DNA from: Carcharhinus amblyrhynchos
Lineage: Eukaryota
DNA length: 64,000 nt
NCBI GenBank assembly: GCA_965287045.1
Contig: OZ336879.1
Coordinates: 66,712,001 to 66,776,000, forward strand
Reading direction: 5' to 3'
This document shows, piece after piece, positions 16,544 through 63,449 of this stretch. Under the pieces are notes generated by a model. The model had not been told where the DNA came from. It saw nothing but the letters and a program-made list of their open reading frames with translations, and searched no databases. The translations under genes and the position numbers were made by a program. How positions within the stretch are numbered: position 1 is the first letter of the stretch; each line of letters opens with the position of its first letter.

Positions 16544-17440
16544 TAAAACCTTGACCTTAAAATATTCTTGCTGGGTTGAAAGAATACTGCAAGATGCAAT
16601 ACATTGATCTGCTGCTGAGATGCAACTTTTTTGCTTCAGAGGTTGTCTTCTTGGGACTGAGAAGGTTGTTTCAAATGTTTGACGGACACAAAACTGTGAG
16701 AGGTAAAGAGAATAGACAGGAGGAACCTGCATTCCTTGACAAACTAAGTGGCAGAAGGCCACCAGAAGCCGTCAGGAAGATGCCAGGGTTTACCTGGCAA
16801 GCCTCCTATTACTGGTGGTAAAATTCCAGAAGTGACTGGAAGAGGTCCTTAATTGGTCACGTAAGTGTCTCAATTGGGCTCCAGGTGGGCGTGCTGTCAG
16901 CCACTTTTTCACCACTGGCAAGGTGGCAGGATAGGGCCAAGACAATTGACATGTGCCATTTTACTAACTATCCCACCTACAACCATGATACAGCACAGAA
17001 GGGTACCATTTGGCCCATCTTGTCTAGCTGACCCAAAGACACCCAGGTATCCTTTCTAATCCCACCTCCCCGCACATGGTCTATTGCCGTGCAGCTTAAA
17101 GCATTTAAGGTGCAGATCCAGGTACTTTTAAACAAATTTAGGGCTCCAGCATCACTCAGGCTGTGAATTTCATACATCCACCGTCTTCTGCTTAAAACAG
17201 TTTTTCCTCATGTCCCCTCTAATCCTTCTGCCACTTAGTTTGCCAAGGAATGCAGTTTCCTCCTGTCTATTCTCTCTTTACCTCTCACAATTTTGTATAC
17301 CTCAAACATTTGAAACAACCTTCTCAGTCCCAAGAAGACAATCTCTGAAGTAAAAAAGCCACATCTCAGCAGCAGATCAATGTTTTACATCTTGCAGTAT
17401 TCTTTCAACTCAGCAGGGCTATTTTAAGGTCAAGATTTTA
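16544..17440. repeat. Inverted duplication, arms 16544-16758 and 17224-17440
   Basis: For example, tcttcttgggactgagaaggttgtttcaaatgtttga is the reverse complement of tcaaacatttgaaacaaccttctcagtcccaagaaga. The alignment continues over about 215 bp. Confidence 0.9.
16980..17345 (-). mobile_element. CR1 LINE 3' fragment
   Basis: Tail accatgatacagcacagaagggtaccatttggccc and ttttcctcatgtcccctctaatcctt. Confidence 0.7.
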
Positions 17441-18529
17441 CGATCCCTCCTGTCCGGCAGGATTTTTTGATCCCACCAAAGTAAATGGCAATTTAAATTG
17501 CCAACTTCACCAGCCAGTGGGGGTGTAGGGGTACACAAACTGTGGAAGGGCATCAAATTCTGACCTACGCGTCTGTCAAGCAGAAACTTGATTTCCTCAC
17601 TGAAGGAAAAAAAAATACTCCCCTGGGAATGAAAGATACGGTTTTCACTGTAGGAGATAACAGTAACTGTTTCCTGGTTGTCTTGTAAGTGCAGAACCTT
17701 TGATAAGACAAATGATGGCAAAGGGATGGAGCAAAGTACAAGAACAAGACAAGGCAAGAGGCCAAAATTCCTTGAGACCCAATCCCAGGAGTGCAATAGG
17801 GTGACACCCACTGTCTTTCTTCACTGAGGAGAGCAACAAATTAGTATGGCACAGGATGGTACAAATGTTCAGATCTCTTCACTCCCCTCCTGACTCTAGA
17901 GGTGTTCTCTTGGTATAGTTGGCAGGTCCTCAAGTTTTGATAAAGTTATTTACTTTCAGACGTTCTGCACTTACAAGACAACCAGGAAACATAAGGAAAC
18001 AGAGGAGATCCAGCACATGTTTTCCTGAGTTACCTTCAGTTTCCCACTGGAAGTTACAGCTGCAGACTGACGGAACCAAAGAGATTTTGAGGCGAACATT
18101 TCTAAGTCTGGGAACGATGGAATAGTTATAGTCAAAGTCACTGTTACCTCCTGTGGTGAAAACCATCCCCACGAGTGTATTTTTTCCCTTCAATAGGGAA
18201 ATCAGATTTGCTTGGGAGCTCCCTGGAAGCTGTTATTCACTCAGCTGATAATACATTGTGCTTAGAAAAGAATCCCCTACTGCATCAATCTATATTTTAA
18301 AACTCATTGCTGCAATTAGAATTGTCAACAAGACTCTCAATTTGTGCTGAATTATGAGTTCTTACTGCTTCTTCCTGATAAACTGCATTGAGATCTCAAG
18401 CGCTAATTTCTCAACTGATCTTAGCAACCAAGAAGAAACATTGGACTAAAAATTCTGTGGCGATTCTTCTGATCTCCTGTTATTTAGTTGAGAGGGAAGT
18501 GGGGCTCACCGTGAAATCACACCATTTTC

Positions 18530-19365
18530 AGCTCTTTATGCAGAAGACATGCAGATGGATATAGATAGATTGAATGAATGGATTCAAATCTGGCAGATGG
18601 AGTATAATGTGGGAAAGTGTGAGGTTGTTCACTTGGTAGGAAGAATAAGAAAGCAGAACATTACTTGGATGGACATCAACTGCAGAATTCCAAGGTGCAG
18701 AGAGACTCACATGTTCCCATGCATGTGTCAAGTATAGCATGTAATCAAGAAGACTAATGAGATGCTATCCTTTTATAATGAAAGGAATTGAACATAAGGG
18801 TAAGGATGTTATGCCTCAATTATACAAAGCACTGGTGAGGTTGCATCTCAAATACTCGCTGCAGTTTTGGTCTCCTTATTTAAGGAAGGATGCAAATGCA
18901 TTGGAGGCAGTTCAGAGAAGTTTTATTGATTGATACCTGGAATGAGTGGGTTTTCTTATGAGGATAAGTTGGACAAGTTGGGCTTAGTTTCACTGGAGTT
19001 TAGAAGAGTGAGGAGTGATACGATTGAAGTATATAAGATCCTGAATGGTCTTGACAAGGTGGACGTAGAAAGTCAAATCTTGGGGTGAGTCTGGAACTAG
19101 GGGCCACTGTTTTAAAATTTGGGATTGTCCTTTTACGACAGGGATGAGACAAAATTTTTTATCTCAAACTCTGCCTCAGAAAGCAATGGAAGCAGGGTCA
19201 CTGAATGTTTTTAAGGCAGAAGTAGATAGACTCTTGCTAGAAAGAATCAAATGCTATCAGGGAAGGACAGGAATGTACAACAACCAATTCAGCCATGATC
19301 TTGTTGAATGTCAGAACAGATTCAAGAGGCCAAATGAGCTACATATGCTCCTAATTCAGATGTTT
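18530..19365 (+). mobile_element. CR1 LINE 3' fragment (degenerate RT C-terminus and 3' UTR)
   Basis: MQMDIDRLNEWIQIWQMEYNVGKCEVVH (ORF 18549), followed by QFWSPYLRKD and FSLEFRR motifs. Confidence 0.88.
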
Positions 19366-21010: not shown

Positions 21011-23551
21011 CATTCTTACCAAAAAAATGGCAAAGTGTCAGTATCTGACGGAAAACCAATGTGTTTCTCTCCAGAGGACAGGCCAATTTTCTCTCAAGAT
21101 TCTCTTCTCCCCACTCCCCCATCAAAGCCAGCATTTCTCCCACCCCACCCCTCCCTGACGATCAAAGCCAACTTCCCCTCCCACAATCTGCACCCCCATC
21201 AAAGACAGCATTACCCTCTCTCTCTCCCAAATCCTCACCCAGAGGGAAGAGTGTCAGAGCCCTTCCCTCTGCCAAACAACCATCACCAGCATCCACACCA
21301 TTTTCACATCCACCCCCTCCACTGCCACAAATAAATGAGTCCTCCTCCATGAGGCAGTGTCGGGAATGACCATGTCCCTCTCCCCGGAGGCTATACTTAC
21401 CTTCGCTCCCATAGGAGGGGGGTGGTGGGGAGCCCCATTCTCCCACAACAGGTTCACATCTGGGTGAACCTATTATAAACCTCACCAATATGTGAAAATA
21501 CAGCGAGTGGGTTTTGAATTATATTGAAGTGCACTATTATAGGCTTGACCCTGATTATGTTGCTGGCAAGGAGTGGCGAAAATTAGTAATTGCTAACTCG
21601 CTGGCGAGATTCATGATTTCCAGGTTTTGTTGGATCTTGAGCAGCCACCCCCCCCCCCCCCCCCCCACCACCCCCACTGCCCCCTCACCAATCTTGTGGA
21701 GAGCACAGACTCAAGATCACCCCCAATATGTTACAAAATCAATGGAGATCAGTTACTCAAACTCCCTGATATTAAAAGAAAGAATTACACTACAGGATCT
21801 CACGTTTAAACCAAAACATTTACTGCACAAGAGTTAAGCAACACAACTACTTGACACTTTATTTCATGCGCACTAACGCTTTGAACTTGCAAACCTCAAT
21901 ACAACACTCCCTGTTCTACTTTTAATCCAATAGTCCCCCTAACCTTTAAAAGATTTTGAGAGTTCTTTAACTTTCCATGAGACCAAACCAAGGCCTGCCA
22001 CAACTTTCAGGAATTGGATTCTTTCAGTATTTCCACAACGCTATTAGATATGAGATTCTTGGGGTCCTTCCAGTAGCATCCAGCAAGACAAACCTTCCAA
22101 CTCCCCTTCAATACTTAAAGATTTTAAAAAGTTCTTTCAAAGGATGTGGGTGCAGCCTAATTGCCCTTAAGGCATTGGTGATTAGCTGCCTTTTTGAACC
22201 ACTGCAATCCACATGTTGAAAGCATCACCGCAGTACAGTTAGAAGAGGAGTTGGAGGATTTTGACCCAGCGATAGTGAAAGAATGGCAATTATAATTCCA
22301 AGTCAGAATGGTGGATGGCTTTAAGGGCAACATCCAGGTGTTGGTGTTCCCATGCACTTTGTTACGATCTGGATAGGGACCATTAACATTTAAAGATGCA
22401 GGTCTATCTAACTGTAACTTACTTTGGCTACCTGCTCTCAGGGAGCTGCAAACTGCACCCACCAGTCCCAAGCTTCAACTACCACTTGGGTGGCTTTACA
22501 TCCCTTTATATCGCCTCAACTGGTTTCAGTCAGCCCAGCAATTTTGGTTTCCAGATTCTAGATTCAGTTTTTCTGTCCTAAGAAACAGGAAGATTCAGTT
22601 TCCTTTCTATGTTTGCCTCTTCTATTTCCATTTTCAGCTTCTGATTTCAGTTAGGTCATGCATTGTTTAAGTTTCCCACCTGCTGCTCTACAATTCTATC
22701 TCTTTACTCTAACCTTGTAAGTGTAATAACCTCCTAGCTTATTTGCATTGCATTCCCCATTTTCTACAGTTGAAACTTTAATTCTTAAAATAAGAAGTTA
22801 TATTCTAAAACTAAAAGGTATATTCTAAAGCACTTGAACCATGAACTAGATATTTGCAACTATCTGCTGCCCTTGTCCTTCTAGGTGGTAGAGCCTGTGG
22901 GTTTGGAAGATGCTGTCAAAGGAACTTTGGTGAGTTTCTATAGTGCATATTGTGGATGGTACATACCGCGGCCACTATGCGTCGGTGGTGAATGGGGTGC
23001 CAGTCAAACGGGGTGCTTTGTCTTGGATGTTGAAGAGCTTCTTGAGTGTTGGTAGATTTGCAGTCATTCAGGCAAATGGAAAGTCACACTCTGAACTTGT
23101 GCCTTGTAGCTGCTGGACAGGCTTTGAGGAGTCAGGAGGTGAGTTACTCTGACCTACTCTTGTAGCCACAGTATTTATATGGCTGGTCCTGTTCAATTGC
23201 TGATCAATAGCAACCCCCAGGATGTTGACAGTGGGAGATTCAATGATGGCAATGTCATTGAATGTCAGGATAACATGGCTAGATTCTCTTCTGTTAGAGG
23301 TGATTATTACCTGGCCTTGTAGTGTGAATGTTAGTTGCCACTTGTCAGCTCAAGCCAGAATGTTGTCCAGGTCTTGCTGCACATGGATAGACTGCTTCAG
23401 AATCTGAGAGGTTGTGAATGGCACTGAAGATTGTACCGTCATCATCAAACATTGCCATTTCTAACCTAATGGGAAGGTCATTGATGAAGCACCTGAAGAT
23501 AGTTGGACCTAGGACACTACCCTGAGGAATTCCTGCAGTGATGTACTGAAA

Positions 23552-23675
23552 GAAGTCTCACAACACCAGGTTAAAGCCCAACAGGTTTATTTGGTAGCAC
23601 AAGCCACAAGCTTTCGGAGTGCTGCTCCTTCATCAGGTGAGTGGGAGTTCTGTCCAACACCGGCATCTTCACATC
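23552..23675 (-). mobile_element. Short Penelope-like insertion with target-site duplication
   Basis: gaagtctcacaacaccaggttaaag...tcatcaggtgagtggg plus an oppositely oriented end tccaacaccggcatc. Flanked by gtgatgtactgaaa (23538-23551) and gtgatggactgaaa (23676-23689). Confidence 0.8.
23603..23640 (-). ncRNA. Minimal hammerhead ribozyme motif
   Basis: - strand reads ucac-CUGAUGA-A-GGAG(cagca)CUCC-GAAA-GCU-U-GUGG: catalytic boxes, stem II, palindromic AGCU stem III and CAC/GUG stem I. The cleavage triplet is the unfavourable CUU. Confidence 0.65.
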
Positions 23676-24562
23676 GTGATGGACTGAAACAGAAATGATT
23701 GATCTCCAACCACCACGACTATCTTCCTACCTTCCATTGGGCATGACTCTAGTCAGTGGAGAGTCTTCCACTGATTCCCATTGATTCCAGTTTTGTTAGG
23801 GCTCTTGATGCCACACTCAGTCAAATGCTGCCCTGATGTCAAAGGCAGTCACTCTCACCTTGCCTCGGGAGTCCAGTTCTTCTGACAATGTTTGGACCCA
23901 GGCAGTAATGAGGTCAGTAGCTCAGTGACCCTGGTGAAACCCAAACTGAGCATCAGTGAGCAGGTTATTGCATTGTAAGTGCCTTTGGATAGCAGTATCA
24001 ATGACGCCTTCCATCACTTTGACAAATTGTTGGTAGTTTTTGTGGACAAGACAAAGCTGGGCAATTTTCTATGTTGCCATGTAGATGTCATACAATCCTG
24101 GAACAGCTTGGCTTGGAGCACAGCTAGCTCTGGAGGACAAGAGTTCAGTATTACTGCTGGAATGTTGTCAGTGCCCACAGCCATTGCGGTATTCAGTTCC
24201 TTCAGCTATTTCTTGATATCATGTGAAGTGAACTGAATTGGCTGAAAACTGATATCTGTGATTCTGGGGATCTCAGGAAGAGGCTGGTTCCCTAATTAAA
24301 GCTTGGGCATCACTGCAATCTGGCTTATTGACTTCAAATGGCAAAACATCCTTGGGTTTGTGATAGCCTTCTGCTATTGGCTCCAGCTGCTCTGCATCGC
24401 CTGGCAAATCATTTCTCTGCCTTCTGTAAACCGCTCAAGATCTAGAGCTCAGCCTGCTTATGCCTATGAAAAATCACCCAGATAAAACGATTACCAAAAA
24501 TAAAATGCTCTTTTAATCTGTCCCCAAGGCAATGAGGGATGCCTGGGATGCCGGAGATAGAA

Positions 24563-24852: not shown

Positions 24853-25065
24853 CCCACTAATTTTGGACCAATTGTTTTCAATCCTCAAACATCCCCCTTT
24901 GTTCTGAGAAACCATATGAATAATTTAAACTGAGCCGGCTGTAGACATCCTACCTCCACCAAAAAGCTGTTTAGGTTCCAGTATTTTGAACTATGGCCTT
25001 GATAAACAGACATAGACCACCTTTTTATTTGCAATTATTCCAGGTTTGTTTACCATATTCTCAAA

Positions 25066-26340: not shown

Positions 26341-26670
26341 GGGGTGGCACAGTGGTTAGCGCTGCCGCCTCACTGCACCAGGGAACCGGGTTTGATTTCT
26401 GGTTTGAATTACTGCCTGTGTGGAGTTTGCACATTCTCCTCATGTCTGCGTGGGTTTCCTCCGGGTGTTCTGGTTTCCCCTCACAGTCCAGAGATGTGCG
26501 GGTTAAATGGATTGGCCGTGCTAAATTGCCCCTTAATACCAGAAGGACTAACTCCATGCATTTACCAGAAGGTAAATGCATGGATTTACGGGGATAGGGC
26601 CTGGAAGGGATTGTGGTTGATGCAGACTCGATGGGCCAAATGGCCTCCTTCTGCGCTGTAGGATTCTGTG
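26341..26670 (+). mobile_element. HE1/V-SINE-like element
   Basis: Full head, core and tail. Confidence 0.87.
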
Positions 26671-37660: not shown

Positions 37661-38356
37661 ACATTAACCAGCAGTATTATAAACATGCAACCTCTCAACT
37701 CCACTCACCAGTATTTTCCGATCTTTGTTATTCCTAATCTTCACTCATACTGATACCAACCATATGTCACAACTCCCATTAAGATACACAGGATTTTTCT
37801 GCACAAAGTATCTCATTGAAATGGTGTTCACATTTAGTTAAGTACCTGAAATATCCAATGTACAGTTGACTGCATTGCTAAACAAAAAAACAACTCAATT
37901 AGGTTCTACTAACACATCAAAGTGCTGATTTTACAAAATTCCATTCCTGCTTTTGAGCCTGGGCTGTTGGGAGTGTTTCTCGTAAATTTAAGCAAGCTTC
38001 CCGTATGCATTGATGGTGAATGTGAATCCCCACCAGAATTACAATTACGCAAAATGATTCCTTAAATTACAACGGTACAACAGGATTTCCGCTCAATGAG
38101 CTTAATACGTCACATACCAAAAAAAATCTTGATTCATTACAGCATCAGTCAACCCCGTGTTTACGGTCTGTGGTGTAGGTGTGTGCAATACATTTGCCTT
38201 ACGTTGGAATAATTGAAATATTGGAACAACAGAACTGACATTATCACCTTTCTGACTGACCCTGCAGTGTAATATATCTGAGTGGCAATGAAACTGCTGC
38301 TGCTTGCATGCCTGTACATTAAATATTTGACCTTCCACTATAATGCTCATTAAACT

Positions 38357-39985: not shown

Positions 39986-39994
39986 TGTTTGTGC

Positions 39995-40474: not shown

Positions 40475-41310
40475 TCAAGTTTACTGATGACACCACCGAA
40501 GTGAGTTGGATCTCAAACAATGACGAGACAGAGTACAGGAATAAGATAGAGAATCTGATGAGCTGATGCGGCAACAATAATCTCACCCTCAATGTCAACA
40601 AAACGAAAGAGATTGTTATCGACGTTAGGAAGCATAAAGGAGAACATGCCCCTGTCTACATCAGTGGGGGTGAAATAGAAAGGGCCAAGAACTTCAAATT
40701 TTTAGGTGTCCAGATCAGCAACAACCTGTCCTGATCCCCCCATGCCAACACTATAGTTAAGAAAACCCACCAACGCCTCGACTTTCTAAGAAGACTAAGG
40801 AAATTTGACATGTCAGCTATGACTCTCACCAACTTTTACAGAAGCACCATAGAAAGCATTCTTTCTGGTTGTATCACAGCTTGGTATGGCTCCTGCTCTG
40901 CCCAAGTCTGCAAGGTACTACAAAAGGTCATGAATGTAGCCCAATCAATCACGTAAACCAGCCTCCCATCCATTGACTCTATCTATACTTCCCGCTGCCT
41001 TGGCAAGGCAGCCAGCATAATTAAGGACCCCACGCACCCCGGATATTCTCTCTTCCACCTTCTTCCATTGGAAAAAGAATACAAAAGTCTGAGGTCACGT
41101 ACCTACAGACTCAAGAACAGCTTCTTCCCTGCAGCTGGCAGACATTTGAATGGACTTATCTTGCATTAAGTTGATCTTTCTCTGGCTCTGACTGTAACAC
41201 TGCATTCCACACTCTCTCCTTTATGAATGATATACTTTGTATAGCGTGCAAGAAACAATAGTTTTCATTGTATGCTAATATATATGACAATAATAAATCA
41301 AAATCAAAAA
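40475..41310 (+). mobile_element. Rex1/Babar-clade LINE 3' fragment
   Basis: Begins ttcaagtttactgatgacaccacc (F[A/T]DDT RT motif), matches 28199-29000 in reverse, ends aataaatcaaaatcaaa. Confidence 0.88.
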
Positions 41311-41974
41311 ATAAATAGAGCTAGAAAGGACTAGTATACAATTGGTTTCTGCGTTCATGCCTATTTTGCAGCAAAAAGAAGTGTCACCATTATGTGAGCA
41401 CTCAGGGTTCCCCGATGATCTATTGAGATTACCCGGGTTCCATGGCTCAAAGGGTTTGGGAACCCTGCTGTAACGTATCAAGATGTTTCTTTCAGTATGG
41501 GGCATATTAAGGTTGTTGAGTGGAAGTCCTGTTGCACCTTTGCAGTTTAAGGAATCATTTTGCATAGTTGTACTCCTGATGGGGATTCACATTCAACATG
41601 AATACATTTTGGAAACTTGTTTAAATTTACAAGAAGCACTTCCAACAGCCCAGGCTCAATGTCAGGAATGCAATTTTGTAAAATCAGCACTTTGATGTAT
41701 TGGTAGAGCCTAATTGAGTTGCTCCTTTGTTTGGCAGAGTATTTGTTACCTATGCAGACTACCATACAGAGGACATTTCAGGTACTTAACTAAATGTGTA
41801 CACTATTTCAATGAGATACTTTGTACAGAAAAGTCTTGTGTGTTTTAATGGGAATTGTGATGTATGGTTGATATCAGGAGAGATTAGGAATAACAAAGAT
41901 TGGAAAACATTGGTGGGTGTAGTTGATAGGCCTTCAAATGGTTATACTGATGGACAAAATATTAAATAAGAACA

Positions 41975-43975
41975 ATTTAAATCTGTAACAAAGGCAACAT
42001 AAGAATCATGGGGGACTTTAATCTTCATATAGACTGAACAAATCAAATTGACAAAGGCAGTCCGGATGCGATAAGTTTGTAGAATGTTTGCCCAGCAATT
42101 TCCTGGAACACAAGGCTGTACAATCAATTAGAGACACAACTATTTTAGATCTGGTACTCTGCAATGACAGTAAGAAGTCTCACAACACCAGGTTAAAGTC
42201 CAATAGGTTTATTTGGTAACACAAGCTCTGACTGTAACACTGTATTCCACACTCTCTCCTTTATGAATGATATACTTTGACAGTAAATCACTGTGCAGCC
42301 ACCTCTGAAGGCTAGCTTCCAAAGTGCTGCTCCTTCATCAGGTAAGTCTGCTTCATCAGGTGACTGATGAAGGGGTAGCGCTCTGAAAGCTAGTGATTGT
42401 GCTACCAAATAAACCTGTTGGACTTTAACGTGGTGTTGTGAGTCTTCTTACTGTGTTTACCCCAGTCCGACACCGGCATCTCCACATCATTCTGCAATGA
42501 GGCAGGGTTAATCAGAAATCTAAGTAAAAGATCCTCTGGGCAAAAGTAATCATAATATGGTTGAATTCCATTATAAGTCTGAGAATATACTTGGGTCCAA
42601 AACAAGAATCTTAAACTTAAAGCAATTTACATAGGTGTAGGGAAACAGTTGGCTATGGTTTTTTGGTTCAGTAAACGAAGAAGTATGGCATTAAGCAAGA
42701 AGTGAGAAACTTTTAAGGAAGTGCTAGCGAGAAAGAGAGAGGTTGGTGAGAAGGGGACATTTACCATGTTGTTAAAATAAGGGATAGCTCATTTAAGACA
42801 TGTGATGGATTTTGTTGCCCCCACCCAGAGTACATTCAGTGTCCTAAATACCGTCAGTGTTTTCAATATGGGGAGCACTGATACATCAGCTGAGAGGGGT
42901 GGTAGGTGATAATAAGCAGGAGTTTCCCTTTCCCATGTTTGACCTGATGAAAGGAGACATCATGGGGTCCAGTGTCAATGTGAAGACTCTGAGGATCACT
43001 TTCTGTAGACAGTAAATCACTGTGCAGCCACCTCAGATGGGTCTGTCCTGCCAATAGGATAGGACACACCTAGGAATGGTGAGGAAGGAATCTGTAATAT
43101 TGGCTGTAATGTATCAAAGGAGGGAGACAAAATCAGGGAACTCTGGACCAGTTCACATGACATCAGTTATCAGAAAAATGTTGGAATATGTTATTAAAGA
43201 AGTCTTAACAATTCACTTTGAAAACCACACTGTGATCAGACAAAGTCAACTTGATGTTCTGAGAGAAGTTTTTTGAGTTTTCTAATTAATAAGGTAGATA
43301 AAGGGGAGACAATAGATGTATACTTGGATTTCCAAAAGCCATTCAAAAAGTGACTCATACATAAGGTGCACAAGATAAGGCCTCATGGCATTGGGTTAAT
43401 ACATTAGCATGCATGGAGGATTGCTGAATGGACAGGGAGCAGAGTTGGAATAAATGGGACATTTTCAAGTTGGCAGGCTGTAATCAGTGGAGTGCATAAG
43501 GATCAGTGGTGGGACTCCAGCTAATTACCATCTATGTGAATGACTCAGAATAATGTAGGAAATGTATACTATGAGAGAACACCAAGAGTCTGCAAGGAGA
43601 TTTTGATTGGTTAAGTGAGTGGGCAACGAGGTGGTAGGTGGATTATAATGACAGGGTGGCATGAAGTATTAAGAATACCAAGCAGAACATTTTCAAAAAG
43701 ACATGAAACTTCTAAATGTTGATATTAAGAGAGAGACTTGGGTATACTCATATAATATAGATATGTAGATACAGCAAACAGTTTGGGAGGCAGATGGACT
43801 ACTGGCCTTTATTGCAAGGGCATTGGAGCATTTCATTCTTTATTCCCACACTACAGAGTACAGAATTGGCTGTACATTTTTTAGGAATTCTTGCTGCAAT
43901 TGTACAGGGATTTGGTGTGGTCACAGCCAGAAAACTGTTTGCATTTTGAACTTCATATCTATGAGTTGGAGGCGG
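41975..43975 (+). mobile_element. Old fragmented CR1 LINE with Penelope and L2 fragments inside
   Basis: Endonuclease-like IMGDFNL (atcatgggggactttaatctt) near 42005. RT-like YLDFQK and LYRDLV fragments at 43320-43970. Confidence 0.7.
42168..42490. mobile_element. Palindromic Penelope-like insertion with perfect 10 bp TSD and two opposed hammerhead-type motifs
   Basis: TSD tctgcaatga at 42158-42167 and 42491-42500. Left arm cagtaagaagtctcacaacaccagg is inverted relative to right arm ggtgttgtgagtcttcttactg. + strand CTGATGA-A-GGGGT(agc)GCTCT-GAAA-GCTA-GTG at 42364-42395. Confidence 0.85.
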
Positions 43976-47494: not shown

Positions 47495-48237
47495 TCTAGC
47501 AGATTGAGCATAATGTGGGAAAATATGACTTCCTTAACTTCAACAGGAAGAATTAAAAAGTAGAGTGTTACTTAAACGGAGGGCTACTGCAGAATTCTGA
47601 GGTGCAGAGGGATCTAGGTGTTCCAGTACATGAGTCACAAGAAGTTAGTATGCAGGTATAACATGTAATCAAGAAGGGTAATGGAATGCTGTTTATTTTG
47701 AGAGGAATTGAACATAAAAGTAAGGATAATTAAACAACTCAGGAGGAGGAGGCTCCACAAATATCCCCATCCTCAATGATGGAGGACCCCAGCACAACAG
47801 TGCAAAAGATAAAGCTGAATCATTCATAATAATCTTCACCCTGTAGTGGGTGATCCATCTGGGCCTCCCCTGAAGGTCCCCAGCGTCACAGGTGTCAGAC
47901 TTCAGCCAGTTCAATTCATTCCATGTGATATCAAGAAATGTTATGCTTTAGTTATGCAGGGCAATGGTGAGACCACATCTCAAATATTGTGTGCAGTTTT
48001 GGTCTCCTTATGTAAAGAAGGATGTAAATGCATTGGATGTAGTTCAGAAGCTTACCAGATTGATACCTGAAATGAGTGGGTTATTTTACGAGGATAGGTT
48101 GAACAGATTGGGCTTATTTCCACTGGAGTTTAGAAGAGTGACGGGTGATTCAACTGAATATGGAAGATCCTGAATAGTCTTGGCAAGGTGGACGTGGAAA
48201 GGATGTTTCCTCTTGTGGGTAAGTCCAGAACTAAGGA
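47495..48237 (+). mobile_element. CR1 fragment interrupted by an internal L2 piece (about 47724-47940)
   Basis: Colinear with 18600-19105 apart from the insert. MVRPHLKYCVQFWSPYVKKD (ORF 47964). Confidence 0.82.
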
Positions 48238-48804: not shown

Positions 48805-50960
48805 AAATTTATTTATGGGATGTATCACTGGCTAAGCCAGCATTTGTTGCCCTTTCCTATTTACCCTTGAAAGGTGGGTGCTGAGCTGCCTTCTTGAAGC
48901 ATTGCAGTTTCTGTCTGTCGAAGGTACACCCACAATGTTGTTAGGAAGGGAATTTCTGCATTTTGACCCACAACAGTGAAGAAATAGTAATTTATTTCCA
49001 AGTCAGGATGACTTGGAGGGAAATGTTCAGGTGGAGGTGTTCCCAGGTAACTGCTGCTCTTATCTGTCTAGATGGTAGTGGTTGTGGGTTTGGAAGGTGC
49101 TGCCTAAGGAGTCTTAGTGAGTTCCTGCAGCTCATCTTGTAGATGGTAGACACTACTGCCACTGTTCTTCTGTGGTGTAGGAATGAATATTAACCAATCA
49201 AGCCAGCTGCTTTGTCCTGGATGGTGCCAAGCTTCTTGAGTGTTACTGAAGCTGCCCTTGTCCAGGCAAGTGGAGAGTATTCCATTACACTCCTGACTTG
49301 TGCCTTGTAGATGATGGACAGACTTGGGGGGAGGGCCAGAATGTGAGTTATTCGCTGCTGGATTCCTAGCCTCTGACCTCTCCTGCAGCCACAGTTTTTA
49401 TATGGTTGGTCCAATTCAGTCCCTGGCAAATGGTAACCCTCAGGCCATCAGTGAACATCCACTTACGATGAAAGGAAGGTCATTGATGCAGCAGTTGAAC
49501 ATGGTTGGGCCTAGGACACGACCCTAAGGAACTCCTGCAGTGAGATCCTGAAAGGGGCAGCCACGGACCCGAGTTCAATTCTGACCTCAGGCCTGTGTGG
49601 AATTTGCACCCCCCACCCCCATCTCTGCGTGGATTTCCTCCAGGTGCTCTGGTTTCCTCCCACATTCCAAAGACGTGGGCTAGGTTGATTGGCCGTGCTC
49701 ATCTGCCCGTTGGTATCCGGGGGATTAGCAGGGTAAATATGTGAGGTTATGGGGATAGGGCCTGGATGGGATTGTGGTCAGTGCAGGCCCAATAGGCAAA
49801 ATGGCCTCCTTCTGCACTGTAGGGATTCTATGAACTGAGATGTTTGACCTCCAACCACCACAACCCCATCTTCCTTTATGCTGTGTATAACTCCAACCAG
49901 TAGAAAGGTTTCCCCCGATTCTAACTGACACCAGTGTGGCTAGGGTTCCTTAATGCCACACTCAGTCAAATGCTGCCTTGGCATCAAGAACAGTCATTCT
50001 CACTTCACCTCTGGCATTCAGCTCTTTTATTCATGTTTCAGCTAAGGCTGTAATAAGGTCAGGAGCTGAGTGACCCTGGTGGAATTCAAACTGAGTATCA
50101 GTGAGCGGGTTATTGCTAAGTAAATGCTACTTGATAGTACTATTGATGGCCCTTTCCATCACTTTACTGATGATCAAGAGTAGACTGATGGGGGCAGTAA
50201 CTGGCCGGATCGGATTTGTCCTTTTTTTTGTGTAGCAGACATACCAGGGCAATTTTCCTCATTACTGAGTAGATGCTAGTTGTAGCTGTTCTGGAACAGT
50301 TTGGCTAGGGGCACAGTAAGATCTGGAGCACAGGTCTTCAGGACTATTGTTGGAATATTGTCACCATATCCAGTTCCTCACCCATTTCTTGATATCACGT
50401 GAAGATTGGCATCTGTGATGCTGGGGAACTTCTGGAGGAGGCCAAGGTCGGCACCTCTGGCTGAAGATTGTTGTGAATGCTTCAGGCTTATCTTTTGCTC
50501 CGATGTGGCGGGCTCCTCCATCATTGAGAATGGGGATGTTTGTGGAGTGTCCTCCTCCAGTGAGTTGTTATATTGTCCACCACCATTTATGGCTGGATGT
50601 GGCAGGACTGCAGGACTTAGATCTGATCCATTGATTGTGGAATTGCTTAGCTCTGTATATTACTTCTGTTTATGCTCTTGGACACAGAAATAGTCCTGTG
50701 TCGTAGCTTCATCAGGTTGACACCTCATTTCTAGTGCTTCTCCTGGCCTGCCTTTCTTCACTCTTCATTGAACCAGGTTGATCCCTGACTTGGTGGTAAT
50801 GGCAGAGTGGGGGATATGCTTCACCATGAGATTGCAGATTGTGGTTGAGTAGAATTCTGCTGTTACTAATGATCCAAGCACCTTAAGGACATCCAGTCTG
50901 AGTTGCTAGATCTATTCAAAGCCTATCAGAATTAGCATGGTAATAGTGCCGCATAACAAT
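48805..50960 (-). mobile_element. L2-type LINE fragment with inserted SINE
   Basis: ORF 49190..49429 IYKAQVRSVMEYSPLAW...TLKKLGTIQDKAAGLIG. 3' tail near 48805. Confidence 0.85.
49555..49832 (+). mobile_element. HE1/V-SINE-like element, 5' degenerate
   Basis: Core and complete tail ggcctccttctgcactgtagggattctatg. Confidence 0.85.
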
Positions 50961-51582: not shown

Positions 51583-51750
51583 TACACATCTGCATTAACG
51601 TATGATGGGATACTCGTTATGGCTGAAGCATTCCGTTACCTCCGAAGACAACGGATTGGGATTTCAAGAAAAGGAAATGCTGGGGACTGTCTTGCGAATC
51701 CAGCTGCTCCTTGGGTTCAAGGTATTGACACAGAAAGGGCACTGAAACAG
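51583..51750 (+). CDS. GRIA4: GluA4 internal coding exon, [56 protein letters not shown]
   Basis: 168 bp, ttctttttAG|TAC...CAG|GTacag. YTSALTYDG and [14 protein letters not shown] match GluA4. It is the expected next exon after ...LK, giving an intron at 4297-51582. Confidence 0.93.
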
Positions 51751-53990: not shown

Positions 53991-55104
53991 TGACCCCTGC
54001 AACAAAAGTTTAGAAATTGGGGTGTTGTAAAACACGGAAGAAAACACAGGCTAAACTCAGAAATACTTTGTTTGAAAGAAGAAGTGAGGTAGTGCTTTAA
54101 GATTTTGTGGCGTATCATGCTTATGCAAGCCCTTTCCAAAGAAAAAATAGTAGGAATTCTTGGCACCGTGGGACTGAATGAGAACACTGAGCAGTGGAGC
54201 CCATATACTGAAAGATTTGATTATTTTGTCCCAGCGAATAAAATTTGGGTGATATCATAGTCCCAATGTTCTTGAGCACAATGGGGGAAAAGCACTCAAT
54301 CTCTTGAGAACTCTGGCGTAACTGGAAAAGCCAGGCTTAAAAGCCTATGATGAGAGAGTCATTTCTCACCTAAACCTTTGGTCATCGCAGAGAGGTTCAG
54401 GTTCCACAAGCACAACCAACAAGAATGTGAATCAATTACACAGTTCATTGCCACTCTGAGGAAATTAGCTGAATACTGTGAATTTGGGGATGGCTCGAGC
54501 AACACCATTAGAGACAGACTCGTGTTTGTCTTCAGAAGCAAAACTATCCAAAAGCCGACTGTTAACAGAAAGCAACCTAAACCTAAAGAAGGTTTTAGAA
54601 GTCACTTTCTCCGTGGAATTGGCAGCCAAGAAAGCTCAACAGTTAAGTTTGAGCACTAGAGTTCATAAAATGTCGCCTGAGACCTGAACACAGACACAGG
54701 TTTGAAATTGCCACCAATGTGCACAAACTGTATACACAGCAGCAGATTGCTGGAGCAAAGAGAAAAAGTGCAGAAGTTGTGGCAGAAAAGGGCACACCAA
54801 ACGTGCTTGTTGGAGACAGAAATGACAAGTTCCAGGCAAGAACTATAAGAAGCAAGAACCAAATGCCTGATATGGAAACCTGAATAGAGAGGAAAGTATT
54901 CACCTGATGTGAAAAAGATGCAAAAAAATGACCAGAGTAATAGCCTGAAGATGGACTGTCATTGAACATATTGGCTATAACTGGTGCAACAAACCCATAC
55001 TGAGTCACTCCTTTAGTCGATTAACAACCAGTGAAAATGGAAGTGGACACAGGAGCAGCAGCTTTGTTGGTACCAGAAACTACCAAGAAAAACGAGGACA
55101 CATT

Positions 55105-55967
55105 GGGGGCGATTCGCCCAGCCTGCAGGGCTGCTTTTATGAGCAGCGGGATGCGAGACTCGAGCGGAGACCATTTTGCAGGCTCCATGCTGGGTGCCTG
55201 GGCCCTCTGGCACTGTCCAAGGGGCAAAGTGCCAATGTCCATTGGACAGCTTGGCACTACCCACCAGGCAAAAGGCAGTACCAAGGGGATAGGCCCTAAT
55301 GGGGCATGGTCTGATGGGGCAGGGCCTCTGGGAGGCAATCTGAGGGGTGGGGGATCCTGCTGCAACTCTGCACCTTGGGCTGAGTGACAGGGATGGAGGC
55401 CAGCAATCAGGGCTGGGCATCATGGAGGATGGACAGCCTGCTGAGGGGTTCAGGGCTACAGAGAGGGGGTTGGGACTGTTGGGGGGGGGGGTGGTCAGGG
55501 CTGCCCATTGTGGGGGGATCAAAGAATTGGGGATGCTGGGGAGAAGCTGGGAGATTGAGGCTGGCCAGGGAGGTGGGAGGAGTCAGGCTTAGGCCCGGAT
55601 ATGTTCAGGGACCAGTGATCGGGCCTTGGGGGGGTCACATGGCCGGCATTGCAGGAGTTAAGGGACTTGTCAGCGATTGAATTGGTCAGTAGTTGGGAGG
55701 CCAGCAGTGCTAGGCCATTGCACATGTACCAATCTCTGCACTGACAGATCAGCGTATGCGCAAGTAGCCCGCTGAGTGCTATGTTGCCAGCCTCTCCAGC
55801 AGGAATAGGTCCTACCCACAGATTTTTGGGCTGATTCACTCTGAGACACTCAGCAGTGCTCAGAGAGTGGGAGATCCAGTTTGAAACGCCTGCTGAAAAA
55901 CCCAACAAGATCTGCTCCAGTTTTTATGCAAGTTGACAATTACAATATTTTTAGAAGAATTGCCCCC
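55105..55967. mobile_element. Non-autonomous Harbinger-type element with TIRs and 3 bp TSD
   Basis: att|GGGGGCGATTC...GAATTGCCCCC|att. Removing it restores the Gypsy protease-region reading (YQEKRGHI|ILTPLKIILKS). Confidence 0.85.
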
Positions 55968-56899
55968 ATTATCTTGACACCCTTGAAGATAATATTAAAA
56001 AGCTGTATTGGAGAAGTGGTTTTACTGAGAGGCCATACCAATGTAAATGTGCAGTTGAATGGACAGCCACAGATTTGTCCCTGCACATTGTTACAGGAAA
56101 CTATCCAGCATTAATGAGAAGAATCTGGCTGGAAAAGATCAAATAAATTGGGTCAATGTTAATCTCATCTCAGATTCCAAGGCATGTCTACATTAATGGA
56201 ATGTGCCATTGTCTTTAATGGGGAGCTGTGAAACATGAAGGAGATCTCAGTCAAATTGAAGATTAAGGACGAAAGTCAAGCAAGATGCTTAAAGGCTAGG
56301 TCAGTGCCATACAAAACCAGGACTAAGGTAGAGGCAGTATTAGAGCAGCTAGTCAAGACAGAAGTCTTCAAACCCACTAATGTGGTGATTGGGCACACCA
56401 ATAGTACCGTGATGAAGAAAGATTGATCAGTACCCATTTGTGATGATTTTAAAGTACTGGAACTGCATGCTGAACAATAGTCTCTTCCCCATTGATAATT
56501 TATTCGCTAGATTGATTCGAGGCCAAAAATTCAGAAAAATTGACCTCATCTCCAGATGAATGTGACAATCGTAACATACAAAGGACTATTTAGATATAAA
56601 AGACTGGAAAGAATGAGGAAGGCTATCTCCACAACCAAGATGCCACACTCCAGAGAGTAGACGATTATGCATTGAGTGCAGAAAGATAAGTGTAAATTTT
56701 TCCAATCTTCTACTGAATATCTGGGTCATGTCATAGATGCAAAGAGACTGCACAAATTGCCTTCTGAGGTCAAAGCCATGAATGAGGCACCTGCACCTCA
56801 AACCATCAATCTACTTTGTTCTTTTTTGGGCTTATTAAACTATTTTGAAAAGTTTGTCCATAATCTATCAACTATCTTTAAGCCTTTACACAATTTATT

Positions 56900-57083
56900 G
56901 GGCAGGATTTTCCAGCCACGCTCACTTTAAAACCAGAAGATCCTGCCAGAAGTCAATGCGGGTGATTGGGCCATACCAATAGTACCCGTGATGAAGGTAC
57001 CCTTTCCATGGTCCGCCCCCCACACGCCTCCCACCTCCACTCACTTTGATTCCCATGGCGTGTGGGAAGGGAAAATTTATCCC
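56900..57083 (+). mobile_element. Harbinger-type MITE with ATT TSD
   Basis: att|gggcaggattttcc...ggaaaatttatccc|att, interrupting the Gypsy RT/RH connection after PLHNLL. Confidence 0.8.
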
Positions 57084-57861
57084 ATTAGGTCAAAGCTGGA
57101 AGTTGAAATAGCTGTATATCTTCATACAAGCTAAAGAGGCACTTCTAAATTCAGAAGTCTTGATGCACTTTGATCCAAATTTACCTTTACAACTGACACA
57201 TGAAGCATCACCTTACCGGGTAGTTTCTCACATAATGTCCAATGCTGAAGAGGAACCAATGGCTTTTACGTCAAGGTTCTTGAACAAAGCCAAAATGAAC
57301 TACGTCAGATAGAGAAAGAAACTCTGGGAAGCATTTTCAGAATCAAATGTTTATACCAATACCTATATGGAAGGATATTTACTTTATTAACAGATCATTG
57401 ACCACAGAATGATATTTGCACCTCTTATCAGGATTCCATCTCTAACAGTGAGCCAGATGCAGATATGGGCATTACTGTTGTCAGCACATAAATATATGAT
57501 AAAATATCATCAGGCTATAATATCTCCATTGAAACACTGATTGACTCTTGTGATTAACTTTACCCAATGATTCATCAATAAACAGTTTGAGTGGAAACAT
57601 TTTCTACCTGAATAAATGGATAGCAGTCCAGTAAATGCAGGGTAAGTTAAGAAGTAAAGCAGAAATGATCCATTACTGTCAAGTTATGGGCATGGTACTT
57701 CATGGTAAGACCACGGGAGCAAACTCAGAGTTGAAGCCATGTGTCACCGAAGACTCGAACTATCCATACAAGCTGGATGTCTTCTCTGGGGAATAAAAGT
57801 ACCATTCCACCATTATTAAGGTAACATTCTAAACCAACCACACAAAGACTACTGTGGTATC

Positions 57862-58163
57862 GTCCGGGTCTCAGCCAACATTTTATAGATTCTAGTGCTC
57901 AAACTTAGCTATTGAGCTTCTTTGGCTGCCAATTCCATCGAGACCATGACTTCTAAAGCCTTCTTAATAACCACTTGTGGATAGCTTCACTTCTTAAGCC
58001 ATACACTAGTCTGTCTCTAATGGTGTCATTCAAGACATCCCCAAATTCACAGTATTCAGCTAATTCCTTCAAAGTAGCTATAACTGAGTGATTAATTTCC
58101 CTTCTTGGTTATGCTTGTGGAACTTGAACCTCTCGGCAATGACCAAAAGTTTAGGTGAGAAGT
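57862..58163 (-). repeat. Inverted copy of the gag segment about 54362-54688 inside the integrase region
   Basis: catccccaaattcacagtattcagctaatt is the reverse complement of aattagctgaatactgtgaatttggggatg. ORFs 54359(-) and 58088(+) share WLCLWNLNLSAMTK.LGEK. Confidence 0.9.
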
Positions 58164-59349
58164 TATTTTTGGTGGCCAGGGCTCAAACTGAAATCAAGGA
58201 GAAGGCAGAGAAATGTTTGTCTTATGCAAAAGTCAGAACCTTCTGCCACAGCATCATTGCACCAATGGGAATGGTCATGGCAAAGAGTTCATATAGATTA
58301 TGCTGGAAAGGGTGTATGTTTCTCATTGTAGTCAATGTGCACTCAAAATGGTCTAAAGTCACCAAAGAGAACAATAGAAAGACTGAGTGAGATTTTTAGA
58401 AGATTCAGTACCCTGAACAACTTGTGAACAACAATAAGCCCCAGTTCATTTCTCAAGAATTCACAACCTATTTAAAGGAAAATAGAATTTAACATACCCG
58501 ATCTGCTCCTTATCATCCTGCCACAAATAGACTGGCAGAGCCATTTGTTCAGGCAATGAAACATTCACTGAAGCTAACTTGAGAGCAAGGTTCATTGTCT
58601 TAACGATTGAGTCAATTCCCAATGACATACTGGAATACTCCCCATTCGACAACCCAATTTCTCCAGCATTGCTCATGATAGGACATCAATTGCACACAGC
58701 TTTTGATTTGCTCAAGCCAAAATGAGATAAATTGTTACGAAGAAACAGCAATTATATGACATGAGAACAGGGCTAGGTTTATCATCAAGGTCAAAAAGTA
58801 CCAGCAAGGAATTTTACCACCAGTGAGACACCTGCCATTGTCTTAGCACAGACAGAACTGGTCTCCTACACTGTGCAAACATGAGAAGATATAGTATGAA
58901 GAAGACATGCAGACCATCGCTTGGCAACCAGAACCAGTTTGCCAGAGACAGAATCAACGGAGAGTCCATAATAAACTATGTCAAGTGAAGACCTGGACAT
59001 ACCTGAGAAATATATGTAAATTACATACAATTTTCTCTTTTACAGCAACTATTTCAGCACTTCCAATACCATTAGAAGGAGCTCTGAGTTGGTACTGATT
59101 AAAATACAACAATGCTTATTGTACATTGCAACTGTCTTTAGGTCTCAGGTTTCAGATTCTTGTGTTCAAAGAACTGAAAATAGATGTGCCGGATACCATG
59201 GCAAATATGTGCCTGAATTAGAAATGTGTGTCCCACGTGTACAAAGTTCTGTGTCGGGGCATTGAAGATATCAATTTATACTTGGGCTTTTCAGTTTGTT
59301 CAACATTTCTTTTACTGTAAAATTTTGAGATGATTAAGTTGAGAATGGA

Positions 59350-61645: not shown

Positions 61646-61750
61646 GTCCGGATCCAGGGCTTAACAGGGAACGTTCAGTTTGACAACTACGGGCGACGGA
61701 CAAACTTCACAATAGATGTATTCGAGCTGAAAAATACAGGCCACAGAAAG
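61646..61750 (+). CDS. GRIA4: GluA4 internal coding exon, [35 protein letters not shown]
   Basis: 105 bp, ttttgaAG|GTC...AAG|GTgaga. [13 protein letters not shown] and DVFELK best fit GluA4 among recalled AMPA paralogues. Confidence 0.93.
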
Positions 61751-62910
61751 GTGAGATGTCTTGAGCAAAAGTTCACGTCAGCATTAATTGTCAGCCTCCT
61801 GTCCAACATGCCAAAGAATACACTGGCGGAAGAGGCCGGCAAATGCTCTCCTTCTAAAAGTGTTGATCAGGAGCTTCTGGAGTCAAGGGTGGAATCTGGT
61901 GTATCTAAGATATTCATTTCTCATTTAAAAATAACCTGCAGAAATTCTGACAAATCCATGTCTACAAGTGAGTGTGATGATGATGAGTGCCAGAAATTGA
62001 GCTTTGTACCACTACAATGGTATTATGTAGGATTTATATTACAGCTCAACAAATCAATGCTGGTTTTTATGTTCCACATGCACTTTCTTCTAGCTGTCTT
62101 CATCTAACCCCACGAGCACATCTTCCTATTTTTCTTCCCCCATCTGTCTAGTTAACTTCTACTTAAATGGACCCATATCAATTGTTTCAACTACTTCTTG
62201 TGGCAAGTTCCACTTATTAACCACTCACTGGATAAAGAAGTTTCTCATGAATTCCCAATTTGATTTATTAGTGACTATCATGGATGTATGAACTCGGACT
62301 ACTAAGATATGAGGTGCGCTGCGTGATCCTTAAAGCCTCTTCAGTTTATACAATAATGTTCTAAATTGGATTAGCTATAAACAATATCTACACAATAACA
62401 ACTGGGTGCATATTTTCTTTCTGATAGTCAGTAGAAGAAGTGTATCAATGGCTGAGCCAGGAGTTTTTAAATCGTGGGACAGAGGAACAAATGATATAGG
62501 ATATGGTGTGTGTCAGGCTGAGAAATCATTTGCCTTGCTCATGTAAGACCAGGATTTTACAATTCCTCTTTATTGTGGTGCGATTGTTTTTTGCCAGCCC
62601 CAGCATGTCCATGCTGCACCATAAATTTACACTTCTTCCCCATAACCGAAACTGTAAAATGTTGATTATCATAAGGTCTGCCTCGGCCTAGTCAACTGCC
62701 ACCATGGACCTCCTGGATTTCATCCAGTTTTCTTGTTGCAGTCACTGAGACTGAAATGTAATGATCCAGACGAATTCATCAGTTCAACATCATTTATTAC
62801 AGTAAAATAAAATCTCTGCTCCCTCTTGAATTTTTAATTCTTTAGCTACATGCCAATAAATCGCCATTCTTGCATGTTAGGTTTAGATTGAGTTATGGAC
62901 ACAGCGTGAT

Positions 62911-63449
62911 GCACTGAAATGGAAGTGAAATTAGTTTAGGCAGTTTTCAGGCCGCAAATGATTGGCAGACGCACATCATGCGCCTGGAACCAGAGGTAGA
63001 CATCTTGTTCGAAATTAGGATTCATGTCTCATCTGAATAATTCTGACAAGACAGATTCCTCTAGACAAAGCTGTGCTCTCACGTAGGCATTGGGGCGGTG
63101 GTGAATGGGTGGGGGCCAAAGCATTGCTGTTGAACCCTAAGAAACAGTCTTTCTTCTCCTCGTTCCATACTGAGTAAACTGCAAAGAAACTTTTTCACTG
63201 GCAACCTACAGCAGTATTGTTAAGGGCCATTGGTTAGACCATCCCACAGAAGGTACCGGAAAATACTGAGCCAAGCACATCTGCACATACACTCATTATT
63301 ACCATTACTGAGGCACTGAAGTGGGAGCAAAATTACTTTAGGCACGCTTTCAGGCCAAAAATGATTGGCAGGCTCACATCATGTGCTTGCAGCCAACGGC
63401 ACAATTGTTTGAAATTAGCATTCATGTCTCATCTGAATAATTCTGACAA
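62911..63449. repeat. Direct repeat, about 138 bp units at 62911-63049 and 63313-63449
   Basis: The last 30 bp are identical (attcatgtctcatctgaataattctgacaa at 63020 and 63420); the rest is clearly alignable. Confidence 0.88.

Follow-up and report, generated by a model that had tools for sequence, protein, structure and literature searches.

Locally copied DNA has been described most closely to the present case as repair-mediated duplication by Pace, Sen, Batzer and Feschotte (2009; PMC2671141), who report donors less than 5 kb away (mean 1.2 kb), inserts with a mean of 162 bp and a maximum of 619 bp, and junctions with microhomology of 2–9 nt, deletions of 1–15 nt and filler; none of 39 proximal cases carried poly-A. 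Twenty of their cases were two-donor chimeras, 295 of 824 acceptors were intronic, and both empty sites and reciprocal-best matches were confirmed. Acceptors were detected as transposon interruptions, and the pipeline removed inserts shorter than 50 bp, any insert present in two or more further copies and sites not lying within annotated transposons; the authors termed the process under-appreciated and stated that transposon-derived cases escape the count. Densities of 0.08–0.65 per Mb of transposon DNA are given (human 0.62, zebrafish 0.19), and cases are reported from primates, mouse, rat, dog, cow, chicken and zebrafish, the survey including no cartilaginous fish. We found no published report of repair-mediated duplication in cartilaginous fishes in a search that covered mainly the open-access literature.

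Related classes have been described as well. Polymerase-theta templated inserts are copied near the break, with very short priming overlaps and sometimes from several templates (PMC4490562), and templated insertions made by MMBIR (microhomology-mediated break-induced replication) occur as germline variants at about 100 per person when at least 25 bp long (PMC8421209). Doublets (Thomas et al. 2004, as cited in PMC2671141) are paired local duplications, short and not in tandem, that emerge from self-comparison and for which imperfect break repair was proposed. Finally, the local n-jumps and bridges of templated insertions of cancer genomes involve template-switch copy-and-paste with several templates strung together (PMC7025897).

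Eight neighbouring pairs in introns of gria4

The window analysed here is a whole stretch of 64 kb. The eight pairs described below (E1–E8, Table 1) all lie in introns of the elasmobranch gria4 gene (AMPA receptor GluA4), one of which, directly after the exon ending at 4296, spans 47.3 kb (4297–51582). Nothing in the window points to a GluA4 function for these events. An Rfam scan of the window gave no family at gathering thresholds (a single chance-level match, E 0.3), and ARAGORN detected no tRNA in it. Pfam matches were obtained in only two of ten transposon-like frames, with the gag piece and most LINE pieces going unrecognised; homology searches named the Gypsy and CR1 remnants, after which three of the ten frames had no family label.

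A sequence-only reading of this DNA had listed eight pairs as local copies with donors about 0.3–3.5 kb away. All eight were present within about 10–20 nt of the coordinates it gave, with donor-acceptor gaps of 246–3322 bp, and no self-match with a score of at least 44 appeared in eight shuffled windows. Lengths were 87–454 bp in seven of the eight and 36 bp in E6, a pair overlooked by BLAST that scored 49 in an exhaustive Smith-Waterman comparison, a single shuffled control being empty at scores of at least 34. A Smith-Waterman near scan (80-nt chunks, 20–3520 bp downstream, score at least 34, last 3.6 kb excluded as query) recovered E6 together with three weak 20–26-nt matches (14499/14581, 21116/21193 and 52137/54528; scores 35–37), which were not counted. 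Tandem Repeats Finder reported no array at any event, and E8 is not a head-to-tail tandem, as only about 150 bp of its 400-bp period are similar.

Donors were wholly or mainly transposon-derived in five of the eight (E1 at 16535, E4 at 42225, E5 at 47724, E6 at 56961 and E7 at 57867), in agreement with the earlier statement that these are mostly transposon DNA that masking would hide. The CR1 piece of the E1 donor matches a CR1 ORF2 profile at 16989–17309 (E 6e-10) and is adjoined by a 137-bp element with inverted ends (17428–17564); the E1 acceptor begins within a terminal inverted repeat and ends within a decayed CR1 piece. A CR1 5' end at 17232 within E1 was rejected, the CR1 piece extending to at least 17309. 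The host of E1 was not rebuilt as one element from copies inside the window. In E3, about 55–70 nt of orphan CR1 endonuclease sequence form the left end of the acceptor, and for the remaining 400 nt the window offers no further match; the endonuclease motif of the donor sits where a tblastn match at 42073–42165 predicts it, the short piece itself being missed by tblastn. E4 is placed in the left arm of a palindrome, a Penelope-like remnant (about 42168–42490) with a 10-bp target duplication and a hammerhead core in its arms. E6 lies in a 184-bp element (56900–57083) that has inverted ends, shows a 3-bp target duplication and is nested in the Gypsy remnant. In E7, reference residues 79–182 are reversed between residues 960 and 965 of P0135. 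The window contains no third copy of the 36-nt part of E2 and no match elsewhere to the flanks and spacer of E8; for both of these pairs a local origin is likely, with copying possible in either direction. The E5 candidate donor is without 19-nt and 4-nt stretches carried by the acceptor, and the E6 acceptor likewise holds bases absent from its nearby donor, so that later deletions in the donors are needed in these two cases.

Table 1. Exons and paired segments in the window (identities in ungapped columns; firm and likely refer to the local donor)
Feature	Position	Strand	Description
gria4 coding exon	1997..2050	+	AG/GT ends and translation; tblastn with named elasmobranch GluA4 proteins
gria4 coding exon	4135..4296	+	P0005 residue 296 ends at 4296, residue 297 begins at 51583
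gria4 coding exon	51583..51750	+	56/56 residues match named shark/ray GluA4; top PDB match GluA4; Pfam ANF_receptor
gria4 coding exon	61646..61750	+	
E1 acceptor (firm)	16535..16758	+	inverted copy of 17224-17449; 203/224
E1 donor	17224..17449	-	decayed CR1 ORF2 3' piece into first 22 nt of 137-bp element
E2 arm (likely)	17577..17707	+	inverted versus 18214-18136 (66/79), then 17991-17953 (37/39)
E2 partner	17953..18214	-	144-bp stretch 17992-18135 missing from other arm
E3 acceptor (firm)	37691..38144	-	inverted copy of 41466-41930; 381/448
E3 donor	41466..41930	+	window-unique DNA and start of 5'-truncated CR1 running to about 43625
E4 acceptor (firm)	42225..42311	+	87-bp chimera, two donors, one per side
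E4 donor 1	41185..41239	+	LINE 3' untranslated end; direct, 54/55 versus 42225-42279
E4 donor 2	43008..43040	+	direct, 31/33 versus 42279-42311; no third copy in window
E5 acceptor	47727..47938 (match from 47724)	+	internal LINE fragment within CR1 remnant
E5 candidate donor	50383..50578	-	inverted; 47724-47904/50400-50578, 146/175
E6 acceptor (likely)	56961..56996	+	36 nt of reverse-transcriptase sequence
E6 candidate donor	56384..56417	+	same Gypsy remnant; direct, 33/34 with two 1-nt gaps
E7 acceptor (likely)	57867..58161	-	inverted gag fragment in integrase N-terminal region of Gypsy remnant
E7 donor	54363..54684	+	gag region of decayed K02A2.6-like Gypsy element (about 54147-58970); 249/295
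E8 copy A (likely)	62907..63049	+	direct repeat of 63309-63449; 119/140
E8 copy B	63309..63449	+	partner of 62907-63049

Proximity, donor identity and junctions

Near similarity as a whole was not enriched: 1511 chunks at up to 3.5 kb gave 25 merged pairs, and the next three distance bands gave 15 (1423 chunks), 23 (1336 chunks) and 23 (1248 chunks). Multi-copy repeats within 3.5 kb also showed no excess (13/122 against 13.0 expected). A near excess emerged only among pairs whose sequence occurs no third time in the window: 7 of 22 such two-copy pairs lay within 3.5 kb, a cut-off taken from the list of the sequence-only reading, against an expected 10.6% (p=0.006), and 4 of 22 within 1 kb (p=0.004), the excess being weaker with a 5 kb cut-off (p=0.037). 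When fragments of the same element pair were collapsed by hand, 7 of 16 pairs were near (p=0.0007) where about one would be expected by chance, and 6 of 15 (p=0.003) when E5 was left out. Because identity does not fall with distance (83 multi-copy matches, Spearman -0.09, p=0.40), gene conversion acting as a general local homogeniser was rejected.

Copying direction and a local donor were established firmly for E1, E3 and E4 only. The E1 acceptor is 90.6% identical to its neighbour versus 42–46% to five other CR1 copies, with 48 of 212 columns common to the neighbour alone, and the E4 acceptor is 98% identical to donor 1 versus 63–82% for four other family copies. Moreover, E1 and E3 duplicate junctions found at the neighbour alone. 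A local donor is likely for four further events. For E5 the insertion is real, and the nearby donor proposed earlier for 47724 is an unproven candidate: three-way sites divide 10 versus 5 (p=0.15), and identity is 79–83% to the near copy and 73–82% to a copy 23.6 kb away, against a family background of 73%. These copy and reciprocal-best comparisons cover the 64-kb window, closer genomic copies being possible for E2, E5, E6, E7 and E8. Taken with the near excess, the private alleles and copied junctions uphold locally templated insertion for most events.

Two other features attributed to the pairs fared less well. Inversion was not over-represented, affecting 5 of the 9 donor segments (p=1.0); among near private pairs the count was 5 of 7, versus 68 of 137 for the other pairs (Fisher p=0.44). 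The upper divergence of 20–25% is reached only when gaps are counted, ungapped mismatch peaking near 17%.

Interrupted hosts were observed for E4–E7. Contiguous empty copies exist for E4 (uninterrupted copies), E5 (18586–19105) and E7 (the P0135 reference), whereas for E6 the evidence is its location within an element with inverted ends; none was found in the window for E1, E2, E3 and E8. Six junctions of E4, E5 and E7, scored by eye in old sequence, totalled 14 nt of overlap versus 4 expected (p about 0.001–0.002), which bears out for these three the short overlaps described earlier; junctions of E1, E2, E3, E6 and E8, with no known empty site, were left out of the scoring. Overlaps were 2 and 1 nt in E4, together with 6 nt of filler or fold-back, 3 nt at each end of E5 and 4 nt or more at the right junction of E7, an event in which about four codons of the target were lost. 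As had been claimed, no poly-A/T tail in tail orientation was present at the junctions of E1–E8, the five A bases on the left side of E1 matching a tail in neither end nor strand. Retroelement 3' ends were absent too, the E1, E5, E6 and E7 inserts being internal and E4 ending short of the LINE end. These five inserts lack the 3' end or tail that ordinary target-primed reverse transcription includes.

Origin of the pairs

For most of the pairs (about 6 or 7 of 8) we consider repair-mediated duplication, long ago and in the germline, highly probable. Each event would have started with a double-strand break whose ends were resected. A 3' end may then have annealed by 1–5 nt to DNA 0.25–3.5 kb away, on either strand, and 30–460 nt would have been copied from this template; the released end would sometimes copy a second template before rejoining the far side of the break via microhomology, with loss of a few target bases. 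The pathway may have been synthesis-dependent strand annealing, MMBIR or polymerase-theta end joining, which leave indistinguishable scars here, and the junction overlaps of 1–5 nt are compatible with polymerase theta and not specific to it. Most polymerase-theta inserts are shorter, and copied from closer by, than E1, E3 and E7. The events are unrelated in time (2–17% mismatch) and most likely neutral.

That some events were instead made by the elements themselves appears unlikely. Here, template jumps during reverse transcription would account for E7 in Gypsy and E4 in the Penelope-like remnant, abortive excision-gap repair of small DNA transposons for E1 and E6, and E2 might be a decayed fold-back element. 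Donor and acceptor of E7 do lie within one element, E4 is inside a palindromic element and E6 inside one with inverted ends, and 24% of transposon-break deletions in C. elegans carry nearby templated inserts (PMC4490562). However, the E4 donors are chromosomal neighbours flanking the element, beyond any element RNA, no long terminal repeats that could date E7 were found for the Gypsy remnant, and excision-gap repair would be a source of breaks for the same mechanism rather than a separate one.

An origin of the pairs by independent insertion of low-copy transposon families, lying close together by chance, is very unlikely. The transposon origin of five donors is compatible with such a history, as are the 15 of 22 two-copy pairs that are distant and the one or so near pair expected by chance, and E5, with its overlapping near and far identities, fits it best. 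Independent insertions would nevertheless leave the private alleles of E1 and E4 and the copied junctions of E1 and E3 unexplained, and they fail on internal fragments that, with no retroelement 3' end, interrupt other elements with microhomology. Assembly or polishing artefacts are hardly credible: although E4 is nearly identical to its donor and the E6 differences are mainly single bases in short runs, junctions carry microhomology and six events have 9–17% mismatch with a strong transition bias (119/184 in the five longest), a pattern of natural ageing that supports old repair-mediated duplication.

Density, consequences and comparison with known systems

The density had been given per 47 kb; as the first 16.5 kb of the window contain no event, the denominator is 64 kb and the density at most 8 per 64 kb. 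The raw value of 3–8 events per 64 kb, or 47–125 per Mb, comes from one selected window, and the three firm events alone put the lower 95% bound at about 10 per Mb. Comparison with the densities in PMC2671141 is unmatched, setting the unfiltered count of one window against transposon-filtered genome-wide counts. We infer that the high density is best explained by unfiltered counting in a slowly changing, transposon-rich genome together with window selection, since such a genome would keep scars readable for long and so raise the apparent density. Taken literally, the epaulette-shark rate of 7e-10 per generation (PMC10587355) would date the events to between 1.3e7 and 1.3e8 generations; the upper ages are implausibly old, and the dates are thus taken only as a sign that the scars are long-lived.

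It is possible, though we regard it as doubtful, that elasmobranchs carry tens of repair-mediated duplications per Mb, at least 10 times as many as mammals and teleosts by the same unmasked method. If so, they would hold a long-lived fossil record of germline break repair amounting to 1–3% of intronic DNA, with repair-pathway signatures that could be dated over hundreds of millions of years. Should a matched method find this density throughout the genome, vertebrates would differ strongly in how many repair scars they carry per substitution, a difference that bears on the unusual stability claimed for shark genomes and offers a direct test of it.

A large share in intron growth, as had been suggested, is not borne out: the copies total about 1.6 kb, or 2.5% of the window, versus at least 27.5% for self-matching repeats, and they seem to add little to intron length compared with transposon insertion. 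The proposed intronic dsRNA may form from the inverted events but would not be special, the duplex energies computed for these five (-105 to -568 kcal/mol) being in a range similar to those of three ordinary inverted SINE pairs 1.6–3.2 kb apart (-173 to -349 kcal/mol).

Among known systems, E4 and E6 most resemble the templated inserts of polymerase theta (PMC4490562) and MMBIR (PMC8421209), classes defined by mutant genetics or read-versus-reference comparison, whereas here scars are seen in one sequence. The doublets surveyed were identical or nearly so and shorter than 100 bp, while most pairs here are longer and 9–17% diverged. Cancer n-jumps are somatic, span kilobases to megabases and are frequently inverted (PMC7025897), whereas the pairs in the window show no inversion bias.

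The repair-mediated duplications of Pace et al. (PMC2671141) are alike in size, distance, junction profile and, through E4, chimeric structure. Donor and acceptor are on the same chromosome in all eight pairs, separated by over 50 bp and under 5 kb, the donor being firm for E1, E3 and E4; seven fall between 50 and about 620 bp, E6 being under that technical cut-off; microhomology, small deletion or filler occurs in E4, E5 and E7; and poly-A/T tails and target duplications of the retrotransposition type are lacking. Reciprocal-best matches were genome-wide there and are within the 64-kb window here. By our reading, the filters of that survey would have counted 0 or 1 of the eight events and discarded 7 or 8. 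Under-recognition of the process, as the sequence-only reading had it, is not supported, the class having been described genome-wide in 2009. Both mechanism and class being known, what the window chiefly adds is an extension of repair-mediated duplication to cartilaginous fishes, and it provides a clean illustration that copies of transposon DNA, excluded from the published counts by design, are assignable to a local donor through private alleles and copied junctions.

Host gene and repeats

The window is enclosed by an AMPA-receptor gene, gria4. Its third exon in the window encodes 56 residues identical to named shark and ray GluA4, with the chimaera at 96% and the other listed matches at 88% or less. 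Reference residues 296 and 297 flank a single 47.3-kb intron, and the intron after it measures 9.9 kb. Base composition was 42.7% GC with a CpG observed/expected ratio of 0.24, and at least 27.5% of the window matched itself. Among the repeats are a 300-bp SINE-like family with many copies, remnants of CR1, of other LINEs and of a Gypsy element, and small elements bounded by inverted ends. The names SINE, Harbinger-like and Penelope-like were given partly by recognition and are to that extent our assumption. The Penelope-like label is backed by three copies that contain a hammerhead core motif, and a Rfam search of the window did not report these hammerhead-bearing repeats. Such a core is a known feature of Penelope-like elements in a source whose available text does not mention sharks (PMC4209133).

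Features of the window (window positions).
Feature	Position	Donor or partner	Remarks
gria4 exons	1997-2050, 4135-4296, 51583-51750, 61646-61750		
gria4 long intron	4297-51582		
E1	16535-16758	17224-17449	
E2	17577-17707		
E3	37691-38144	41466-41930	
E4	42225-42311	41185-41239, 43008-43040	
E5	47727-47938	50383-50578	candidate donor
E6	56961-56996	56384-56417	candidate donor
E7	57867-58161	54363-54684	
E8	62907-63049	63309-63449	
Minisatellite	5925-6110		young, GC-rich; 23-bp unit, 8.1 copies, 98% matches
Old repeat	21779-22126, 24321-24389, 24870-24969	29590-30354	69-80% identity; first copy spread over 3 kb by later insertions, second nearly contiguous
Insertion mid-SINE copy	26537-26589		short, palindromic and tandem, 24 bp
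Penelope-like terminal repeats	23550-23650, 31515-31605, 31860-31990, 42168-42490		42.2-kb copy: inverted pair with 10-bp target duplication, within CR1
Hairpin	31860-31909		50 bp, near-perfect (92%), edge of Penelope-like repeat
Harbinger-type transposase remnant	31968-32291		beside hairpin; weak Pfam DDE_Tnp_4 match, E 0.005
CR1 piece	45400-45930		least decayed; 176-codon open frame
Gypsy remnant	54147-58970		K02A2.6-like, decayed, gag to integrase collinear; no long terminal repeats detectable
Elements splitting Gypsy remnant	~55105-55969, 56900-57083		inverted ends; own inverted gag piece also splits it

The least decayed CR1 piece is 86% identical to a full-length ORF2 record (P0216), and therefore points to a young CR1 family in this lineage. 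The insertion in the SINE copy is possibly a small fold-back templated insertion.

Probable local copies of neighboring DNA

All eight pairs of copies proposed by the sequence-only reading (E1-E8) were found in the window, and eight shuffled windows gave nothing comparable. Similarity within 3.5 kb taken as a whole showed no enrichment in the window, because ordinary repeats dominate it. Near pairs in multi-copy families (13/122) were exactly at chance expectation (13.0). Pairs without a third copy in the window were enriched at short range: of 22 such pairs, 7 lay within 3.5 kb (p=0.006), 4 within 1 kb (p=0.004) and 7 within 5 kb (p=0.037). When fragments belonging to one element pair were merged by hand, 7 of 16 pairs were near (p=0.0007), where chance gives about one. 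These p-values are somewhat generous because the cut-off came from the sequence-only reading's own list.

E1, E3 and E4 are firm events. The E1 acceptor is 90.6% identical to its neighbor and 42-46% to five other CR1 copies, with 48 of 212 columns common to acceptor and neighbor alone. It also includes the first 22 nt of a small element abutting the donor, and was therefore copied from that spot. In E3, 400 nt are matched in the window solely at 41466-41870, and the acceptor also carries 55-70 nt from the start of a CR1 whose continuation is present solely at the donor. This assignment was made from where the endonuclease motif lies with respect to tblastn matches rather than from a direct match. 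The copies at 37691 and 41876 end beside retroelement 5' ends, the first of a SINE-like element and the second of a truncated CR1, an arrangement that may reflect chance at such repeat density or 5' joining linked to local copying. E4 is an 87-bp insert that splits an arm of a palindromic element; other copies of that element show the empty form. The first 55 nt of the insert match a LINE end 1 kb upstream at 54 positions (63-82% in four other copies), the 33 nt that follow match DNA 0.7 kb downstream, and the final 6 nt are filler or fold-back; the junction overlaps are 2 and 1 nt.

The other pairs are less certain. E5 is a genuine insertion whose two junctions each overlap by 3 nt; its near copy lacks two stretches present in the insert, and informative sites favor the near over a distant copy by just 10 to 5 (p=0.15). 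In E7, an inverted gag piece lies between residues 960 and 965 of a reference polyprotein (P0135), with about 4 codons lost and an overlap of at least 4 nt; this arrangement may have arisen during reverse transcription rather than in the chromosome. E6 consists of 36 nt from the reverse-transcriptase region of the Gypsy remnant, which lie within a small nested element at a distance of 0.5 kb. For E2 and E8, no host or copying direction was recognisable.

Junctions and probable mode of copying

The inserts have no tails and are internal fragments, bearing out the reported lack of poly-A and ruling out ordinary retrotransposition. Assembly error is argued against by the transitions among mismatches (119/184 in the five longest pairs). 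The short junction overlaps also held: at six junctions the partner is known independently (two each in E4, E5 and E7, the others being left out), and the overlaps there total 14 nt against 4 expected (p ~0.001-0.002). Inverted donor segments (5/9) gave no orientation bias, against the description of the copies as often inverted. Break repair is the most likely process: a resected end would prime on a nearby template, copy it and rejoin. The initiating break and the enzymes are inferred.

Density, consequences and relation to repair-mediated duplications

The first 16.5 kb yielded no pair of this kind, and the density is therefore counted over 64 kb instead of the 47 kb originally used: 47 per Mb from the three firm events (95% interval 10-137), or 125 per Mb (54-246) from all eight. 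Copied DNA adds up to roughly 1.6 kb, or 2.5% of the window, so that the suggested contribution to intron growth is small beside transposon insertion. As for intronic dsRNA, the two arms of an inverted pair could anneal to each other in the pre-mRNA, but inverted SINEs nearby do the same with similar energies.

The observation is real, a little overstated, and within a described class. Pace et al. (2009) reported 824 repair-mediated duplications in human, with donors within 5 kb, lengths to 619 bp, junctions with microhomology, deletion or filler, tails in 0/39 proximal cases and 20 two-donor chimeras, and found them also in nine other vertebrates; transposon-derived cases were, as they state, systematically excluded (PMC2671141). 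Related templated inserts are described in polymerase-theta repair in worms (PMC4490562) and as human germline variants (PMC8421209). We found no report of either kind in cartilaginous fishes in the literature searched, which omits most subscription papers.

The published densities per Mb of transposon DNA, 0.62 in human and 0.19 in zebrafish (PMC2671141), are not like for like, as those filters, by our reading, would pass no more than one of these eight events, and the window was selected from a scan. Elasmobranchs change slowly (epaulette shark, 7e-10 per base and generation, PMC10587355; whale shark, likewise a slow rate, with long introns rich in CR1, bioRxiv 443036), and scars therefore stay readable longer. 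Filters, window selection and slow change could explain the density gap without a special mechanism. That elasmobranchs hold an order of magnitude more such scars under a matched method seems to us rather doubtful, and this tenfold excess is the point worth a proper test. In the within-window comparison, the pairs behave like the class of Pace et al., three events showing every feature that could be scored for them.
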